Shown here: positions 43,218 through 50,342 of the stretch, one piece after another | How positions within the stretch are numbered: position 1 is the first letter of the stretch | Layout of the letters: each line of letters starts with the position of its first letter | Source of the DNA: an uncultured Planctomycetia bacterium | GTDB lineage: Bacteria > Omnitrophota > Gorgyraeia > 1-14-0-20-64-10 | Direction: 5' to 3' | DNA: 64,000 bases | Assembly (NCBI GenBank): GCA_964373295.1 | Contig: CAYJUA010000001.1 | Span: 4,608 to 68,607 of the forward strand | Made by a program: the position numbers and the translations under genes | Notes under the pieces: generated by a model | What the model was told of the DNA's origin: nothing | The model's input: only the letters and a program-made list of their open reading frames with translations | Databases searched by the model: none

Positions 43218-44518
43218 TCACTTGGCGCAAGGTCTTCTGGGCGGCGGTGGTGGCTTACACGGCGGCGCACCTGGGCTACTCGGTGGTCCGGTACAACATC
43301 TTTTCGGGGCTGGCCAGCGGCGACTTCAACCGCGTCTACCAGGAAGCGACCAACTGGGCCCGCTCAAGCACCTACTCCCCGGACGCCGGGGTCTGGCACC
43401 CGCCCTTCTATTACTGGTTCCTCCTCCACCTGGACAAGGCCGTGGGGGGGCAGCAGCGGCTGGCCCACGCCCTCTATTTCTCGCAGTTCCTCCTGTTCCC
43501 CCTGGCCGTGCACGCGATGGTGAAGGCCGCCCGGCTTGAGAAGCGGCCCGCGGCGATGCTGTACATGGCCGCGGCGGCCCTCACGGTCAACTTCCAGCCG
43601 TTCCTGGAGACGCTCGCCCAGCACAAGGTGGAGGGGATCGAGTTTTTCCTCATCGCCCTGGCCGTTCTCTGGTACCGCCAGGGAAGGGACCTCCTCTGCG
43701 GGGCGGCGGTGATGCTCGCCGCGAACCTCAAGTACCTGCCGGGGATCCTGATCCTTTTCTTTCTGGTGAAGAGGCAGTGGCGGGTGCTCCTCGGGATGCT
43801 CCTCATGGAGGGGGCCATCGTGCTCCTGCTCGCCCACAGCTACGGGCTCGAGGTCCTGCGCTTCGCGCTGATCCAGCACCCTGCGGACCTCCTTTTCTCC
43901 CACAGGCACGAGGGGACCTTCCCGCTGGCCAGCGTGGAGATGCAAACCCTGGCGGGAACGGTCAACCGGCTGCTGGCCCGTCCTGACCCGGCCTACGGCT
44001 TCATGTACTACATCGAGACCGAAAACTACATGCCGGTCTCCCGCCCCGCGTTGGCGCAGGGAATCGCCGGCGCCCTGCGCCTCCTGCTCATCGGCGTCTG
44101 GGTCTTCTTCATCCGGAGGGGCATCCCGGTCCGAGAGAGAGAGCGGGCCTGGCCCCGGCTGCTCCTGGAGCTTTCCTTCACGCTGGTGATGCTCCTGATG
44201 ATCTCCCAGCTGGCGCGGGTCCACTATGGGATCCTCCTGCTCCCGGCCTTCGTGGCCGTGGGCCTGCTCCTGTATCAATGGAGGTGCCGCTTTCGGCCTC
44301 TGGAGCGATGGCTTTTCCTCGCCGCCTATGGCTTAAGCGCCATGCTTATCCCTGGAGGCTTCCTTAATAAGCTGCCTCCCGCGCCCTTGTGGGGGAGCAG
44401 CTACTCCGACCTGTACCTCTGGGCGTCCCTGCCGTTCATCGGGTACGTCCTGCTCGGCGCCTGCATCCTCCTCTGCGCCCGGCGGCTAAGGGCCGCTCCG
44501 CCCGGGAAGTCCTCATGA
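43214..44518 (+). CDS. Polytopic membrane protein, GT87/DUF2029-like putative GT-C glycosyltransferase
   Basis: About 10 predicted TM segments. First loop has GLASGDFNRVYQ and VWHPPFYYWFLL, reminiscent of mannosyltransferase-type GT-C proteins. Confidence 0.45.
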   Translation: MITWRKVFWAAVVAYTAAHLGYSVVRYNIFSGLASGDFNRVYQEATNWARSSTYSPDAGVWHPPFYYWFLLHLDKAVGGQQRLAHALYFSQFLLFPLAVHAMVKAARLEKRPAAMLYMAAAALTVNFQPFLETLAQHKVEGIEFFLIALAVLWYRQGRDLLCGAAVMLAANLKYLPGILILFFLVKRQWRVLLGMLLMEGAIVLLLAHSYGLEVLRFALIQHPADLLFSHRHEGTFPLASVEMQTLAGTVNRLLARPDPAYGFMYYIETENYMPVSRPALAQGIAGALRLLLIGVWVFFIRRGIPVRERERAWPRLLLELSFTLVMLLMISQLARVHYGILLLPAFVAVGLLLYQWRCRFRPLERWLFLAAYGLSAMLIPGGFLNKLPPAPLWGSSYSDLYLWASLPFIGYVLLGACILLCARRLRAAPPGKSS

Positions 44519-45444
44519 GCGGGGCTGTGGGCCAACCTCTCTCGGGGGAAGAGACCGGGCAGAGGATCGCCTTCCCGTGCCCCCTCTGCGGCAGGACGGA
44601 TCTGAAGGTGCTCTACCCGGACACGCTCGGCCAAGAGATGCCGCGCTTCGGGTACGATTTCACGCCGGAGCACACACGGACCTACCGGGTCGTCCTCTGC
44701 CGCCCCTGCCGGCACGCCTTCTGCTCCCCGAGACCCGCGCGCCTGTGGGCGGAATACGCGGAGGTGGAGGACCCTGCCTACCTGGAGCGGCAGGAGGACC
44801 GGATCGCCACCGCTGGCCAGGTGCTCTCGCGCCTCCAACGCTTCGCCCCGTCGGGACGCCTCCTGGACATCGGCTGCGCCACCGGCGATTTCCTCGCCGT
44901 CGCCCGCGAGAACTACCAGGTCGAGGGCTTGGAGCTCTCCGCTTGGGCTGCCGCGATCGCCCGGCGCCGCGGCCTCACCCTCCATGAAACCGACCTGGCC
45001 GGCTTTCACCCCAACGCTCCCTTCGACCTGCTGACCCTGTGGGGAGTGATCGAGCATTTCGAGGACCCGGCGCGGGAGGTGCGCACGATGTCCCGCCTGG
45101 TCCGCCCCGGGGGCCTCGTCTGCCTCTGGACCGGAGACCGGGAGGCCTGGCTGGCCCGGCTGCTGGAGCGGCGGTGGTGGTATATTCAGGGTCAGCACCT
45201 CCAGGTCTTCAGCCGGGCCTCGCTGGAGAAGGTCTTCCGGGACGCCGGCTTCGAGACGCTTTGGGTTGGCCGGTACCCCTGCGTCATGACGATGCGCTCC
45301 ATCGCGAAGTCCCTACGGAGGTACCCGCTGCTGGGATCGGCCACCGCACGGCTGCTGGGCTCGGGGCCGCTGGCATCCCGGTCGGTCACGCTGACCCTGC
45401 CGGGCGAGATGTTCGCAGTCTTCAGGAGGAAAACGTCATCGTGA
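44515..45444 (+). CDS. Class-I SAM-dependent methyltransferase with N-terminal Zn-ribbon
   Basis: CPLCG...CRPCRHAFC Zn-ribbon. SAM motif RLLDIGCATGDFL... Confidence 0.7.
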   Translation: MSGAVGQPLSGEETGQRIAFPCPLCGRTDLKVLYPDTLGQEMPRFGYDFTPEHTRTYRVVLCRPCRHAFCSPRPARLWAEYAEVEDPAYLERQEDRIATAGQVLSRLQRFAPSGRLLDIGCATGDFLAVARENYQVEGLELSAWAAAIARRRGLTLHETDLAGFHPNAPFDLLTLWGVIEHFEDPAREVRTMSRLVRPGGLVCLWTGDREAWLARLLERRWWYIQGQHLQVFSRASLEKVFRDAGFETLWVGRYPCVMTMRSIAKSLRRYPLLGSATARLLGSGPLASRSVTLTLPGEMFAVFRRKTSS

Positions 45445-45581
45445 ATCTGCCGTTGGCCTACATGAACCCCGGCGCGGGGAGCCTCCTGCTCCAGCTGATC
45501 CTGATGGGGACGGCCGGCCTCTTCCTGGCGGGTAAGTCCCTCTGGCACTCCTTCCGATCGCTCTGTTCGCGCAAGAAGTAG
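45441..45581 (+). CDS. Small hydrophobic ORF (46 aa, one predicted TM helix); may instead be the displaced 5' end of the next gene
   Basis: GTGA overlap with the upstream stop. Peptide VNLPLAYMNPGAGSLLLQLILMGTAGLFLAGKSLWHSFRSLCSRKK. See the finding on a possible frameshift. Confidence 0.25.
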   Translation: MNLPLAYMNPGAGSLLLQLILMGTAGLFLAGKSLWHSFRSLCSRKK

Positions 45582-45733
45582 ATTCTCTGGCAGGGGAGCT
45601 GGACGAGCTGCGCCGCTTCCACCGGAATGGGAGCTGGCTGCGGCAGGCGCTGGTCTTCTACTCGGAGACGGCCGGTTACTACCCCTGCTTCCGGCCGGTC
45701 CTCCGCGCCCTCCAGCAGCGCTCGCGGGAGGAG

Positions 45734-46711
45734 ATGGGCTACATCACCTCCGACCCCGCCGACCCGCTGCGGTCCTCCGCGCCGGAAGGCCTGCGGGTGT
45801 TCTGGTTCCGGCGCCTCCTCCCCTTCGTGATCCAGTTCCTCCGCGCGCCAGCCCTGGTTATGACGACGACCGACCTCCACCGCTTCCACCTCCGCCGCTC
45901 CGTCTTCCCCGTGAACCACGTCTACCTGTTCCACGCGCTGGTGAGCACCCACATGATCTATCGCTTCGGCGCCTTCGACCATTACGACACGATCCTCTGC
46001 GGCGGCCCCCACCACGTGCGGGAGATCCGCCGGGCCGAGGAGCTTTACCGGCTCCGGCCCAAGCGCCTGCTCGAGGCAGGCTACCCCCACCTGGACGAAC
46101 TGGCGGATGCCCACCGGCGCCGGCTCGGGCGCCCGCGGGAGGGAAAGGGGACCGTTCTCATCGCGCCCTCCTGGGGGGCGGCGAACATCCTGGAGTCCTG
46201 CGAACCCCGCCTGACCCAGGCCCTTTCCGGGGCGGGGTACCGGGTGATCGTCCGACCGCATCCGGAGTTCTGCAGGAGAAACCCTGATCGGATCGCCCAA
46301 CTTTCAAAAATTCTCGCTTCGAAGGGGGGGGTCATGGACATGGACTACGGCTCCGAGGAATCGCTCCACGCCGCCGACCTGCTGATCACCGATTGGTCCG
46401 GGATCGCGATGGAATACGCCTTCGCCACCGAGAGGCCGGTGCTGTTCCTGGACGTCCTGCGGAAAGTCAATAACCCCAGGTACGAGGAGCTGGGGATCCC
46501 TTCCCTGGAGGCCGAGATCCGGGAAAGGATCGGGCAGGTGGTTTCTCCTGTGGAGGTCGAGCGGATCCCCGGCCGTGCCGAACAGATGCTGCGGGAGGGC
46601 CCGGACTACCGGCCGCGCATCGTTGAGGAGCGCGCCCGACGCCTCTTCAACGCAGGATCCTCCGCCGCGGCCTGCGCCGACTTCCTCCTTGAACTCCGCC
46701 GGCCCGTCTGA
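45734..46711 (+). CDS. TagB/TagF-family (CDP-alcohol phosphotransferase-type, GT-B) protein. The annotated start is probably too far downstream
   Basis: ...KGTVLIAPSWGAANI... and ...ADLLITDWSGIAMEYAFATERPVLFLD... match the TagF catalytic domain. The frame stays open upstream to 45536 and there encodes ALVFYSETAGYYPCFRPVL, a conserved TagF N-terminal motif, but without an ATG, GTG or TTG. Confidence 0.65.
   Translation: MGYITSDPADPLRSSAPEGLRVFWFRRLLPFVIQFLRAPALVMTTTDLHRFHLRRSVFPVNHVYLFHALVSTHMIYRFGAFDHYDTILCGGPHHVREIRRAEELYRLRPKRLLEAGYPHLDELADAHRRRLGRPREGKGTVLIAPSWGAANILESCEPRLTQALSGAGYRVIVRPHPEFCRRNPDRIAQLSKILASKGGVMDMDYGSEESLHAADLLITDWSGIAMEYAFATERPVLFLDVLRKVNNPRYEELGIPSLEAEIRERIGQVVSPVEVERIPGRAEQMLREGPDYRPRIVEERARRLFNAGSSAAACADFLLELRRPV
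46324..46331 (+). repeat. Poly-G tract (G8) inside the TagF-like CDS
   Basis: ...cgaagGGGGGGGGtcatgg... encodes SKGGV. Coordinates are +/-1. Confidence 0.45.
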
Positions 46712-46754
46712 TAGCATGGCTGTCAACTGATAGCTGACAGGTGAACCCCTGCCC
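46709..46754 (+). promoter_or_regulatory. Candidate operator: direct repeat TGATAGC (x2) interleaved with the inverted repeat CTGTCA-n9-TGACAG, immediately upstream of the XRE-HTH nucleotidyltransferase gene
   Basis: tgatagcatggCTGTCAactgatagcTGACAGgtgaa read directly from the sequence. AGGTGA Shine-Dalgarno about 12 nt before GTG 46755. Confidence 0.3.
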
Positions 46755-47924
46755 GTGAAAAGCTCCGCCAAAAAAACCAACGGATCCCGGCCCACGAACG
46801 GCTCCCGGAAGCCCTTCGGGAGTGTGGTCCGCTCCCTCCGCAAAAAGGCCAACTTGAGCCTCCGCGAGATGGCCCGCCGGACGGGGATCACCGCCTCGTA
46901 CCTCAGCGACATCGAGGCCCTCCACCGGCGGCCGCCTTCCAAGGAGGTCATCCAGCGGTTGGCCGCCGAACTGCGCGTCGCCCCGGAGGGGCTGTTCGAC
47001 CTGGCGGGGCTGGACGGCGACCGGATCCCCCCGGACGTCCCCGACATCATCAAATGGAGGCCGGAGTCGGTCTCCCTCCTGCGGGCCATCCGGCACCACC
47101 AATCCTCCTCGCAGCAGATTCGGGACCTCACCCGCCGGGTGGGCGGGGCGGAGGTGCGGGCCCTGATCCTGGCGGCGGGGATGGGCACGCGGCTGAAAGA
47201 ATACACGCAGGACCTCCCCAAGTGCATGGCCGTGGTGCTCAACGGCAAACCGCTCATCGAGATCCAGATGGATACCCTCCGAGCCTGCGGGATCAGCGAC
47301 ATCTCGATCGTCCGGGGGTACAGAGCCGAGAAGATGCGGTTTCCGGAGGTGCGCTGCTACCACAACCCCGACTATGCGCGCACCAACATCCTCGCCTCCC
47401 TATTCAGCGCCGAGGAGGCGCTCGATGGTGACGTGATCGTCTCCTATTCCGACATCTGGTACGAGACCGCCGTGGTGAAGCGGCTCCTCCGGTGCGAGAA
47501 GGACATCGCCATCGGCGTGGACATCGACTGGAAGGAGTATTACCTGGGCCGGAAGGACCACCCCATCGAGGAGGCCGAGAACGTCATCCTCGACAGCGAC
47601 AACCGCGTGGTGAAGATCGGCAAGATCGCCGCTGAGAAGGCGGAGGTCCACGGCGAGTTCATCGGGATGATGAAGCTCACCCGCCGGGGCTGCGAGCTGC
47701 TCCGGCGCCACTACCACCGGGCGAAGGCGGCGCACGAGGGCAAGCCGTTCCAGCGGGCCGCCCGCTTCGAGGAGGCGTACCTGACCGACCTCCTCCAGGA
47801 GATGGCGGACCTCGGGGTGCCGATCCACGGCGAGATCATCGGCTCCGGCTGGAAGGAGATCGACACCGTGGAGGATCTCCAGAAGGCGATCGCTGTTTTC
47901 CATCAGAAGGAGACGCTTTCATGA
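46755..47924 (+). CDS. XRE-family HTH domain fused to a sugar/alcohol-phosphate nucleotidyltransferase (LicC/cytidylyltransferase-like)
   Basis: GTG start. HTH SLREMARRTGITASYLSDIE. Nucleotidyltransferase signature RALILAAGMGTRLKEYTQDLPKCMAVVLNGKPLIE. C-terminal ...HGEIIGSGWKEIDTVEDL. An A7 run sits at codons 6-7. Confidence 0.75.
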   Translation: MKSSAKKTNGSRPTNGSRKPFGSVVRSLRKKANLSLREMARRTGITASYLSDIEALHRRPPSKEVIQRLAAELRVAPEGLFDLAGLDGDRIPPDVPDIIKWRPESVSLLRAIRHHQSSSQQIRDLTRRVGGAEVRALILAAGMGTRLKEYTQDLPKCMAVVLNGKPLIEIQMDTLRACGISDISIVRGYRAEKMRFPEVRCYHNPDYARTNILASLFSAEEALDGDVIVSYSDIWYETAVVKRLLRCEKDIAIGVDIDWKEYYLGRKDHPIEEAENVILDSDNRVVKIGKIAAEKAEVHGEFIGMMKLTRRGCELLRRHYHRAKAAHEGKPFQRAARFEEAYLTDLLQEMADLGVPIHGEIIGSGWKEIDTVEDLQKAIAVFHQKETLS

Positions 47925-48640
47925 TGCAGTCCCAGAATGTTGTCCAGCAGGCCCTCTACAAGAGTCACGGAACCCTGATCCATGCCTGGCGCAACGAAGT
48001 CAAGCACACCTTCGAGATGGTTTCCCGGGACACCGGCATCCCGGTCGAGCGCCTCCGCTCCCTCGAGGCGGGAATGGAGAAGCCCTCCTGGGAGGAGCTG
48101 GAGCTCCTGGCCAGGCAATTCACCGTGAGCGTCCGGGACCTCCTCCCCTTTGAGAACGACCTCGACCGCGGCATGAAGTTCCTGAGGAACCGGGACGCCC
48201 GCGCCTTTGACCAAAAGAGAGCGGGGCAGCTGCAGTACACCTATTGGGAGAGGGTGATGACCTCCGCGATCCCGGGGATCAAGCCGGTCGAACTGCTCCT
48301 CCATCTGAACCGGAGGGAGGAGGTCGTCATGAACCGCGGGCATTTCTTCCATCAGTACACGCAGGTCCTCCACGGCGGGCCTGTGGCCTATCTGTGGGAG
48401 TGGAAGGGCGCCACGCATGAGGATGTCTTCGAGGAAGGGGACTCCTGGCTGATCCCCGGTTTCGTCCCCCACGGCTTCTACTCTCCCGATGCGCAGCGGC
48501 CCGGGCAGATCCTGGCGATCACCTTCGGCCAAAACCTCACCGGGGACGCGCGCCAGGAGCTGGCCCTCCTCGGACGGGAGAACGCCTCTCGGATCGTCTC
48601 CGATGACCAGGACTACTACCCCCAGGAGGGGCGGAAGTGA
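47921..48640 (+). CDS. XRE-like HTH domain fused to a single metal-binding cupin domain (HppE-like architecture; could also be a cupin-sensor regulator)
   Basis: ATGA overlap. HTH TFEMVSRDTGIPVERLRSLEAG. Cupin motifs NRGHFFHQYTQVLHG and GDSWLIPGFVPHGF with conserved His residues. Confidence 0.7.
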   Translation: MMQSQNVVQQALYKSHGTLIHAWRNEVKHTFEMVSRDTGIPVERLRSLEAGMEKPSWEELELLARQFTVSVRDLLPFENDLDRGMKFLRNRDARAFDQKRAGQLQYTYWERVMTSAIPGIKPVELLLHLNRREEVVMNRGHFFHQYTQVLHGGPVAYLWEWKGATHEDVFEEGDSWLIPGFVPHGFYSPDAQRPGQILAITFGQNLTGDARQELALLGRENASRIVSDDQDYYPQEGRK

Positions 48641-48644
48641 GTCG

Positions 48645-50342
48645 ATGACCGAGCGGGCGTCTTCCTTAAGAAAGCGCCTCCGATCCGGGAAGATCGTCCG
48701 GGCCATGGGAGCCCACAATGGGCTGGGGGCCCGACTCATCGAGCGGACCGGCTTCGACGCCGTCTGGGCCAGTGGCTTGGAGATCTCCACCGCCTACGGC
48801 GTGCCCGATGCCAACATCCTCACCATGACGGAAAATCTCGATGCCGCCCGGGCGATCCACGAGGCGACGGCGCTGCCGATCATCTGCGACTGCGACACCG
48901 GCTACGGCAACGCTTCCAACGTCCGCCACATGGTCCGCCGCTACGAGGCGGCGGGGCTGGCGGCCATCGTCATCGAGGACAAGATCTTCCCCAAGGTCAA
49001 CAGCTTCATCCCGGACGGACAGGAGCTGGCCCCCGTGGGCGAGTTCATGGGGCGAATCCGGGCGGCCAAGGCCACCCAACGCAACCCGGATTTCATGGTC
49101 TTCGCGCGGGTGGAAGCGCTGATTGCCGGCTGGGGCCTCGAGGAGGCGATGCGCCGCGCCAATGCCTACGTGGATGCCGGCGCCGACGGGATCGTGATTC
49201 ACTCGAAGGCTTCTTCTCCCGAAGAGGTGCTTGCCTTCGCCCGGAGCTGGAAGCGGCCCGTGCCCCTCGTGGCGATCCCGACCACCTACTACCAAATCAC
49301 GGCCGAGGAGCTGCAGCGGGCAGGCTTCTCCATGGTGATCTACGCCAACCATGGCCTCCGGGCGGCGATCCGCGCGATGGAATCCACCTTCCGCGAGATC
49401 CAGCGGACCGGGACGACCCTGGGAGTGGAGGGAAAGATCGCCACCCTGAAAGAGGTCTTCGAGCTCCAGGGGATGAAGGACCTCAAGGAGGACGAAAAGC
49501 GCTTCTCCGGCGAAGAGCCGATCCGGGTGGTGATCCCCGCGGCCCGCGACCACCGGAGGCAGACGGACCTCTGGGAGCTGCTCCCTGACAAGCCTCTCTG
49601 CATGCTGGAGATGGGAGGGAAGACCCTCCTCGACCGGCAGATGGAGCTTCTCCGCTCGGTGGGTGCCGCCGACATCCACGTGGTCGGCGGCTATCTCCAC
49701 GAGCGGATCAAGGCGGAGGGGGCCCACGTCCTCTTCAACCCGGACTACGCCCGGTACCACTGCGCCCAGTCGATCCTCTTCGCCAAGGAGCACCTCCAGG
49801 GAAGGACCCTGCTGGTCTATTCCGATGTCCTGTTCGACCGACAGATCCTGGAGCGCCTCGTGGAGAGCCCCCACCCCATCACCCTCGTCATCGACCGGGC
49901 CTACCAGACCCTTCCCCTGCGCGAGAAGTCGCTGGACCTCGTTGCGGTGGATGCGGTCGGCGAGGCGGCGGGGCGTCGGCTGCGCATGAACCTGTTCAAG
50001 CCGATCCGGCAGATCGGGAAAGGCGTCGTCCAGCGGCCCACGCACGAGTTCATCGGAGTCGCTTTCCTCCGCGACAACGGAGCCGAGGAGCTCAAGCGCG
50101 CCTGGGAGGAGGCGCTGGCCGAGTTCCGCGGCAAGCCGTTCCATGAAGCGCGCAGCGTGGAGGAGGCTGACCTCACGGACCTGCTCCAGCACATGATCCG
50201 CCGGGGCACCCCCGTCTTCGGGATGGAGATCGAGCACGGCTGGTCCGAGATCCATTCGCGGGACGACTACGATCGGGTGCGGCAGCATTTTCAGAAGCCG
50301 GCCATGGCGCTGGCCGGCGGGAGAAGCCTTTCGCCGCGCTGA
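48645..50342 (+). CDS. Phosphoenolpyruvate phosphomutase (Ppm) fused to a C-terminal nucleotidyltransferase-like domain with a degenerate active-site loop
   Basis: Ppm N-terminus LRKRLRSGKIVRAMGAHNGLGARLIERTGFDAVWASGLE and signature AIVIEDKIFPKVNSF. The C-terminal about 250 aa is a paralog of the 46755 nucleotidyltransferase domain (LTDLLQHMIRRGTPVFGMEIEHGWSEI vs LTDLLQEMADLGVPIHGEIIGSGWKEI), but the glycine-rich loop is VVIPAARDHRRQ instead of LAAGxGTRL. Confidence 0.85.
   Translation: MTERASSLRKRLRSGKIVRAMGAHNGLGARLIERTGFDAVWASGLEISTAYGVPDANILTMTENLDAARAIHEATALPIICDCDTGYGNASNVRHMVRRYEAAGLAAIVIEDKIFPKVNSFIPDGQELAPVGEFMGRIRAAKATQRNPDFMVFARVEALIAGWGLEEAMRRANAYVDAGADGIVIHSKASSPEEVLAFARSWKRPVPLVAIPTTYYQITAEELQRAGFSMVIYANHGLRAAIRAMESTFREIQRTGTTLGVEGKIATLKEVFELQGMKDLKEDEKRFSGEEPIRVVIPAARDHRRQTDLWELLPDKPLCMLEMGGKTLLDRQMELLRSVGAADIHVVGGYLHERIKAEGAHVLFNPDYARYHCAQSILFAKEHLQGRTLLVYSDVLFDRQILERLVESPHPITLVIDRAYQTLPLREKSLDLVAVDAVGEAAGRRLRMNLFKPIRQIGKGVVQRPTHEFIGVAFLRDNGAEELKRAWEEALAEFRGKPFHEARSVEEADLTDLLQHMIRRGTPVFGMEIEHGWSEIHSRDDYDRVRQHFQKPAMALAGGRSLSPR

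Follow-up and report, generated by a model that had tools for sequence, protein, structure and literature searches.

At which codon does translation of the TagF-like gene in the 64,000-nt stretch of contig CAYJUA010000001.1 (the window) begin? The public annotation starts the gene at ATG 45734 (P0001, 325 aa), the codon from which the ORF was also called in the preliminary description of this sequence. That description had also pointed to an open frame further upstream, overlapped by a small transmembrane open reading frame (ORF), and had proposed a frameshift, a non-canonical start, or a recent pseudogene. Our results are best explained by an intact TagF-like gene that is distinct from the small ORF and whose true product starts 5′ of Glu21 (E21, 45596; residues numbered from 45536) and has approximately 375–390 residues rather than 325. 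On the sequence comparisons, we lean toward a near-cognate start codon, with translation probably coupled to that of the small anchor ORF.

An open frame without a canonical start codon

The frame was read codon by codon. The TagF-like frame is open back to 45536 and comprises 391 codons up to its stop at 46711. Within 45536–45733 it lacks any ATG, GTG, or TTG, in agreement with the preliminary description. The only near-cognate codons 5′ of E21 are CTG 45542, ATC 45557, CTG 45563, and CTG 45587. The features of the region are as follows.

45441..45581, forward strand: small transmembrane ORF, 46 aa, VNLPLAYMNPGAGSLLLQLILMGTAGLFLAGKSLWHSFRSLCSRKK followed by the stop
45533..45535, forward strand: TAA, upstream closure of the TagF-like frame
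45536..45581, forward strand: overlap of the small ORF with the TagF-like frame, 46 nt, TagF-like frame open
45596..45733, forward strand: N-terminal coding region E21–E66, omitted by the public call; seen in the alignment, the AlphaFold model, the GC content at third codon positions (GC3), and the substitutions
45734..46711, forward strand: TagF-like ORF as publicly called, 325 aa (P0001), PF04464

At the upstream closure, GGG TAA of the window aligns with GTG GAA at the orthologous codons of the related locus L001.

An independent Logan assembly of run ERR3478686 (L084, 3476 nt) matches positions 44061–47536 of the window with one substitution (44305) and no gap, and it is identical across the junction. 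P0001 was found on the 118-kb NCBI contig and on the 3.5-kb Logan contig. A sequencing error is unlikely.

The upstream stretch belongs to the enzyme

A homologue search with the 391-codon translation yielded 475 matches, nearly all 370–420 aa long, with a query coverage of 88–99%; lower coverage (83%) was obtained for P0001 itself alone. In a 27-sequence alignment (A1), all sequences share E21, F41, Y42, and E44, and R27 and G54 are almost invariant; these six residues lie upstream of Met67, the residue encoded by ATG 45734. The Met67 column itself is occupied by V, I, L, or M in the homologues. The invariant His residues of the alignment are H133, H139, H149, H159, and H242.

The AlphaFold model of the extended protein (predicted local distance difference test 90.1, predicted template modeling score 0.88) contained an N-terminal helix (residues 6–29), strand 1 (39–43, LVFYS), helix 1 (46–62), and strand 2 (67–71), of which Met67 is the first residue. 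The stretch upstream of Met67 is structurally necessary: region 45596–45733 contains most of the N-terminal helix, strand 1 (45650–45664), and helix 1 (45671–45721). According to the model, a product started at Met67 would be left without the first strand–helix unit of the N-terminal Rossmann-like domain. The 325-aa public call is truncated, because strand 1 and helix 1 are encoded upstream of Met67, and it is too short by about 50–60 residues.

The nucleotide sequence carries a coding signature as well. GC3 in the TagF frame is 0.92 over 45584–45733, as compared with 0.87 in the called gene. The differences between the window and its closest relative, L003, pile up at third codon positions (8/7/14), and seven synonymous codon changes occur in 27 codons of the upstream stretch. 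The homologues, the alignment, the model, and the coding signature show that the upstream stretch belongs to the protein.

The preliminary description had equated this stretch with the conserved N-terminal block of TagB and TagF. Homology within the protein's own subfamily was confirmed, but the canonical motif was not demonstrable at the sequence level. The PF04464 match spans only residues 167–304 (profile 149–291 of 367) and leaves the N-terminal region unaligned to TagF/TagB. A profile search of the PDB sequences with the family alignment found no TagF, and its sole match was a chance one (E 0.84). In the model, strand 1 is followed by G47 and helix 1, a region that neither the Pfam nor the PDB profiles aligned to TagF/TagB. 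Equivalence to the ILFESFxG block is plausible, as judged from the predicted fold only.

The start-less state recurs among the relatives

Start codons were surveyed at about 116 related loci, independent of one another and taken from genome and metagenome collections. Nearly all of them have an ATG, GTG, or TTG 2–25 codons 5′ of the E21 position, with a modal start 25 codons before F41. Only the window (with its duplicate L084), L116, and L120 are without a canonical start and without any other lesion. Probable starts were assigned in 111 loci, 31 of them being TTG and 15 GTG.

L116 has 55% amino acid identity to the window and lies on a different tree branch. Its frame is open for 52 codons 5′ of E21 with no canonical start, the first one being GTG 2481, after strand 1. 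The junctions of the two loci are alike, TAG-attct-CTG-gca-ggg-GAG in the window and TAG-gctcc-CTG-gcc-gcc-GAG in L116, with the CTG 5 nt past the stop in both. L120 (880–945, Logan SRR22388198) has no small ORF. It reads CTG CTC TCT TTT TTT CGG GAA, as compared with TTG CGC TCT TTT TTT CGG GAA in L004. The L120 CTG is preceded by GGAAGGGG, a Shine–Dalgarno (SD) sequence with ΔG −8.4 and a spacing of 9, and the 65 open codons upstream of it contain no canonical codon. The gene caller used a TTG eight codons past E21, which resulted in the truncated P0126 (361 aa).

The window, L116, and L120 fall on three different branches of a neighbor-joining tree: the window groups as sister to L003, L116 branches at the base of the Omnitrophota-like clade, and L120 is nested in that clade. 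Since the branches are separate and the genes intact, the start-less state arose or was tolerated at least three times. Its recurrence in intact genes argues for function over decay.

Further candidates were examined and rejected. L101 and L108, flagged as start-less by a strict filter, do have starts; the N-terminal linker is shorter in their subgroup. L070 has a normal ATG and then an in-frame TAG, which is a different phenomenon. In this locus (L070:2920–3030, Rhodospirillaceae metagenome-assembled genome (MAG) PBPM01000009.1), a good SD and ATG are followed by the TAG seven codons on (MFDGLRR, stop, LAAWGN...), and the conserved protein resumes in the same frame after it; a nonsense pseudogene, a sequencing error, or read-through is possible.

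Weak start codons are common in the TagF-like family, and in L007 and L121 the SD abuts the ATG (0–1 nt spacing).

The small ORF encodes a probable membrane-anchor partner

The small ORF described earlier was found as stated: it runs from GTG 45441 to TAG 45581, encodes 46 aa with one hydrophobic helix in frame 0 (the TagF-like gene being in frame 2), and overlaps the open TagF-like frame by 46 nt (45536–45581). Its product has a YMNPGxGS motif, a single transmembrane helix, and a basic tail. The GTG overlaps the stop of the upstream methyltransferase gene (GTGA), and an AGGAGG lies upstream (ΔG −10.3, spacing 10). GC3 of the small ORF is 0.94, and the ORF is present in the public annotation (P0121). 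No family match was found in Pfam and NCBIfam.

In the overlap, GC3 is 0.87 in the small-ORF frame versus 0.53 in the TagF frame. Codons read by hand against L001 showed synonymous or conservative changes in the small-ORF frame and radical ones (L>R, L>D, F>D) in the TagF frame. The conserved part of the enzyme probably does not include overlap 45536..45581.

The order methyltransferase, small ORF, TagF-like gene, and helix-turn-helix (HTH)-nucleotidyltransferase, with a phosphoenolpyruvate (PEP) mutase near by, is conserved in L001 (59% identity), L003 (66%), L116 (55%), L117, and L121. The same order is found in the Omnitrophota MAG loci L004 and L007. A metagenome scan and a genome scan for closer relatives gave none above 55% identity. 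The small ORF is kept as a separate ORF in 13 loci. It is separately terminated, 46–48 aa long, and carries YMNPGxGS in L001, L003, L004, L007, L116, L117, and L121, and it is also separate in L085. In all these relatives it ends in RKK or RKR followed by the stop, except for L117 (...GGKKKG, stop). Relative to the TagF-like gene, the small ORF is in frame 0 in L003 and L085, in frame +1 in L004, L007, and L121, and in frame −1 in the window as well as in L001, L116, and L117. The TagF-like starts relative to the small-ORF stop are as follows.

L117: TTG, overlapping the small-ORF stop (TTGA)
L004: TTG, 13 nt after the stop
L007 and L121: ATG, 13 nt after the stop
L085: GTG, 12 nt after the stop
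L003: GTG, 21 nt after the stop

A homology search with the 46-aa ORF in a large database returned five matches only and led to L115, L116, and L117. The closest small-ORF homologue is in L115 (780–1090, ENA ERZ27276474), with 81% identity, 58 aa, and a longer tail. There, the small ORF lies directly 5′ of a PEP mutase gene, overlapping its start by 1 nt, and not 5′ of a TagF-like gene. Going by this arrangement, the small protein is tied to the phosphonate cluster as such.

Natural in-frame fusions of the transmembrane segment to the TagF-like domain, with the same transmembrane motif, were found in 2 of the 119 homologues (P0013 and P0056). When the window's ORFs are fused conceptually, the product and P0013 are colinear, with 43% identity across 150 aa and a linker nine residues longer in the window. 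The small protein and the enzyme probably work together, because natural fusions exist. On sequence grounds, the small protein is probably the membrane-anchor partner of the TagF-like enzyme. We read the anchor and the enzyme as a two-subunit module that is occasionally fused, and not as a frameshifted fusion gene. Thus, the proposed link between a transmembrane anchor and the TagF domain found support in the natural fusions and in the colinearity with P0013, but its origin by a frameshift in the window did not.

Candidate start codons and proposed mechanism

Three CTG codons were considered.

45587..45589, forward strand: CTG, preferred candidate, three codons before E21 and 5 nt after TAG 45579–45581
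45542..45544, forward strand: CTG, candidate chosen in the preliminary description, 18 codons before E21
45563..45565, forward strand: CTG, candidate, 11 codons before E21

On sequence evidence, we prefer the ranking 45587 > 45542 ≈ 45563. CTG 45587 has the same geometry as in L116 and lies 23 codons before F41, inside the usual start range of the family. Termination–reinitiation reportedly works at −8 to +10 nt, and such gene pairs are enriched for complex subunits (PMC10666635). CTG 45587 (+5), if it is the start, falls within this range, as does the start of L117 (−4), while L004, L007, L121, and L085 are borderline (+12 to +13). CTG 45542 has an SD-like GGCGGGU upstream (ΔG −6.0, spacing 7). 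It lies 40 nt before the end of the small-ORF stop, where the composition and the substitutions follow the small-ORF frame. CTG 45563 aligns with TTG in L001 and CTG in L116, and it has no SD (ΔG −1.5). SD scoring was ambiguous as a means of choosing the start: the best sites precede CTG 45608, use of which would delete E21, and ATG 45734, at a distance of about 1 nt. Of the three options offered earlier, a non-canonical start was the best supported, but CTG 45542 is only one candidate and ranks below 45587.

Several points weigh against near-cognate initiation. The SD of CTG 45587 is weak (AAGAAG, ΔG −1.9), and L001, with the same 14-nt junction, has TGC at this position. The position corresponds to a Leu that is conserved in the family for structural reasons, and CTG is very common in this 67% GC genome, with eight CTG among the 66 upstream codons. 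The CTG at 45587 is therefore not significant by itself. We also rejected a conserved CTG three codons before E21 as proof of a start, given the Leu or Phe conserved there in the family and the TGC of L001. L116 and L120 are each represented by one contig from one sample. CUG initiation in E. coli reaches about 0.02–3% of that of AUG (bioRxiv 10.1101/063800), and CUG is actively discriminated against as a start (PMC11497404). Such weak initiation implies low expression, unless coupling or lineage-specific initiation compensates for it.

In the mechanism that we infer, with respect to the codon used, the coupling to the small ORF, the complex formation, and the substrate alike, a lineage without ATG, GTG, or TTG at the usual start position would begin translation at a near-cognate codon. 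Ribosomes finishing the small transmembrane ORF would help the TagF-like gene to start through translational coupling, that is, termination–reinitiation. The start would be CTG 45587, 5 nt past the small-ORF TAG, with CTG 45563 and CTG 45542 as alternatives. According to the positive-inside rule, the small protein would be oriented N-out and C-in, and it probably holds the soluble enzyme, with its GT-B fold, at the cytoplasmic membrane face. In this position, the enzyme may transfer a cytidine monophosphate (CMP)-activated phosphonyl or phospho-alcohol group to a glycan or lipid acceptor, the activated group being made by the products of the neighboring PEP-mutase and nucleotidyltransferase genes.

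A more tentative extension, which we regard as doubtful, is that canonical starts have become dispensable in one clade of phosphonate-cluster TagF-like genes, where ribosomes ending the 46-aa anchor ORF would reinitiate on CUG and so fix the anchor:enzyme ratio. If true, CUG reinitiation would explain the loss of the start at least three separate times (window, L116, and L120) without gene decay, and it would provide an example from nature of bacteria reinitiating efficiently on CUG.

Alternative explanations

Could a −1 ribosomal frameshift within 45536–45581, programmed or at the stop, produce a single membrane-anchored enzyme? In its favor, the window, L001, L116, and L117 all have the TagF frame at −1 to the small ORF, fused proteins occur naturally (P0013 and P0056), and the conceptual fusion is colinear with P0013. 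The small ORF also ends in Lys codons (AAG AAG TAG), and Lys AAG codons are frameshift-prone in other systems, for example dnaX and B. subtilis cdd. We nevertheless consider this explanation very improbable. The frame-0 codons 45537–45581 read TCC CTC TGG CAC TCC TTC CGA TCG CTC TGT TCG CGC AAG AAG TAG, and no X_XXY_YYZ heptamer was found in the overlap. The RNA around and downstream of the junction was no more stable than shuffled sequences (z = −0.29), and an Rfam search across the junction gave no match. The same 14-nt junction is accompanied by unlike ends, AAG AAG TAG in the window and L001 versus AAA CGA TAG in L116, with no common slippery site. L003 (frame 0) and L004, L007, and L121 (frame +1) each possess a start of their own; a shift is therefore not a trait of the family. 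The small ORF also has a conserved terminus, RKK followed by the stop. Neither a stimulatory structure nor a conserved shift was seen: the relatives occur in frames 0, +1, and −1, most of them with canonical starts (L116 excepted). The frameshift suggested earlier as fusing the transmembrane ORF to the TagF domain is not supported, considering the identical L084, the separate small ORFs, the variable frame, and the lack of a heptamer or structure.

An unlikely but retained rival is that the window carries a start-loss allele or young pseudogene, which would yield negligible enzyme or only an inactive fragment of 325 aa begun at ATG 45734, and the homology upstream would be a recent relic. This would fit the lack of a canonical start in frame, the very weak activity of near-cognate codons in E. 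coli, and the strong SD-like GGGAGGAG (ΔG −10.3) just 5′ of ATG 45734. Members of the family do decay, as exemplified by L070, with its in-frame TAG seven codons after the ATG. On the other hand, the 391 codons contain no other lesion and keep all invariant residues, and GC3 is 0.92 upstream of Met67. The same state is found in two diverged, otherwise intact orthologues (L116 and L120), and the remaining cluster genes are intact. GGGAGGAG ends only about 1 nt from ATG 45734, and the Met67 product would have neither strand 1 nor helix 1. The intact frame of 391 codons and the recurrence thus weaken the case for the recent pseudogene considered in the preliminary description. A sequence error or minority variant, with a frame-fusing indel or a base creating a canonical start in the true genome, might be suspected since the source seems to be a metagenome-type assembly. 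We hold it to be extremely improbable: two assemblies from different pipelines agree base for base in the region, reading of the overlap 45536–45581 revealed no homopolymer runs (no A or T runs), where indel errors concentrate, and L116 independently shows the same junction geometry. Near-cognate initiation remains our preferred explanation.

Enzyme family and relation to known systems

The protein matched part of the PF04464 (Glyphos_transf) profile at E 3.3e-13, with 49.8 bits over a gathering cutoff of 22.1. The top five Foldseek matches in the PDB were TagF structures (3L7I–3L7M, E ~1e-12, TM-score 0.56–0.61), consistent with a GT-B-like fold of two Rossmann-like domains. Further matches were other GT-B enzymes and TagF-like capsule polymerases (8qoy and 8a0m). 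By its Pfam match and modeled fold, the protein is a TagF-like phosphotransferase. Its neighbors in the window are a PEP mutase–nucleotidyltransferase fusion, the HTH-nucleotidyltransferase, an Fe-alcohol dehydrogenase, methyltransferases, and a GT87 glycosyltransferase. Of 122 related loci drawn from many phyla, 38 have a PEP mutase no more than 3 kb away. A role as a transferase for a CMP-activated phosphonate is a reasonable inference from this context.

The protein resembles the TagF/TarF CDP-glycerol:poly(glycerophosphate) glycerophosphotransferases, such as S. epidermidis TagF, in the PF04464 match and the GT-B-like two-domain fold. It differs in having only ~14–16% identity to TagF and no sequence-level match to any solved structure, in its context of phosphonate (PEP mutase) rather than teichoic acid biosynthesis, and in being paired with a dedicated 46-aa transmembrane peptide. 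The proposed transfer of a CMP-activated head group to a surface glycan, next to a Ppm-nucleotidyltransferase, is reminiscent of the LicD-type (PntC/Lic) systems, although the TagF-like family and fold are unrelated to LicD. Work on phosphonate tailoring covers CMP activation by PntC, LicD-like transferases, and glycosyltransferases, and does not mention TagF-like enzymes (Rice et al. 2019, PMC6697681).

We regard the case as a variant on two known themes, non-canonical starts and translational coupling. Near-cognate starts in bacteria are known from E. coli infC and pcnB (AUU), along with rare annotated CTG starts. As in these genes, a conserved N-terminus is found without ATG, GTG, or TTG and with a near-cognate codon at the expected position, and L120 has CTG for the orthologous TTG behind an SD. 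The infC AUU is conserved and autoregulatory. Unlike in infC, start-less genes are scattered here, at 3 of ~116 loci and on different branches of the tree, and no regulatory logic is evident. Like coupled gene pairs (PMC6728339, PMC10666635), the two ORFs are co-directional, with junctions of −4 to +21 nt across the relatives. The downstream start is often weak (TTG or GTG) with a poor or mis-spaced SD, and the products are plausibly two subunits of one complex. Unlike such pairs, the window has no typical ATGA or TGATG overlap. Reinitiation on CUG is not described in the papers that were consulted.

Implications

Expression from ATG 45734 for a phosphonyl-transferase assay would probably give insoluble or inactive protein. 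An expression construct is best begun at or before 45587, with the 46-aa partner co-expressed or fused as in P0013. Gene callers that accept only ATG, GTG, and TTG silently truncate such genes, as seen in P0001, P0126, and the call in L116. The recurrent start loss, together with a CTG at the orthologous position, offers a testable natural case of near-cognate initiation or coupling outside the model organisms. The TagF-like subfamily is widespread, often located beside a PEP mutase, and uncharacterised, and the small transmembrane ORF represents a conserved unannotated family, adjacent to the enzyme or fused to it.

Neighboring genes and subfamily distribution

The operon looks tightly coupled throughout, including the GTGA overlap of the methyltransferase gene and the small ORF. 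The methyltransferase ORF listed at 44389–45444 probably starts at an internal ATG (MSGAVGQ...) near the GT87 stop at 44518. The nucleotidyltransferase at 46755–47924, the second one in the window, is fused to an N-terminal Xre-type HTH domain. At 48489–50342, the PEP mutase is fused to an NTP_transf_3 domain, in a PntC-like arrangement. As listed, the PEP mutase ORF shares ~150 nt with the preceding gene. Comparison with L115 (MDRSAALRERL) points to the internal Met of MTERASSLRKRL as the probable true start.

The TagF-like subfamily (L004–L083) occurs in very distant lineages, among them Omnitrophota, Dehalococcoidia, Latescibacterota, Woesearchaeota, Nanoarchaeota, Myxococcota, Planctomycetota, and the candidate phyla radiation. 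Several of its members are labeled 'YidC/Oxa1 family membrane protein insertase' by the Joint Genome Institute (JGI), apparently a propagated misannotation.

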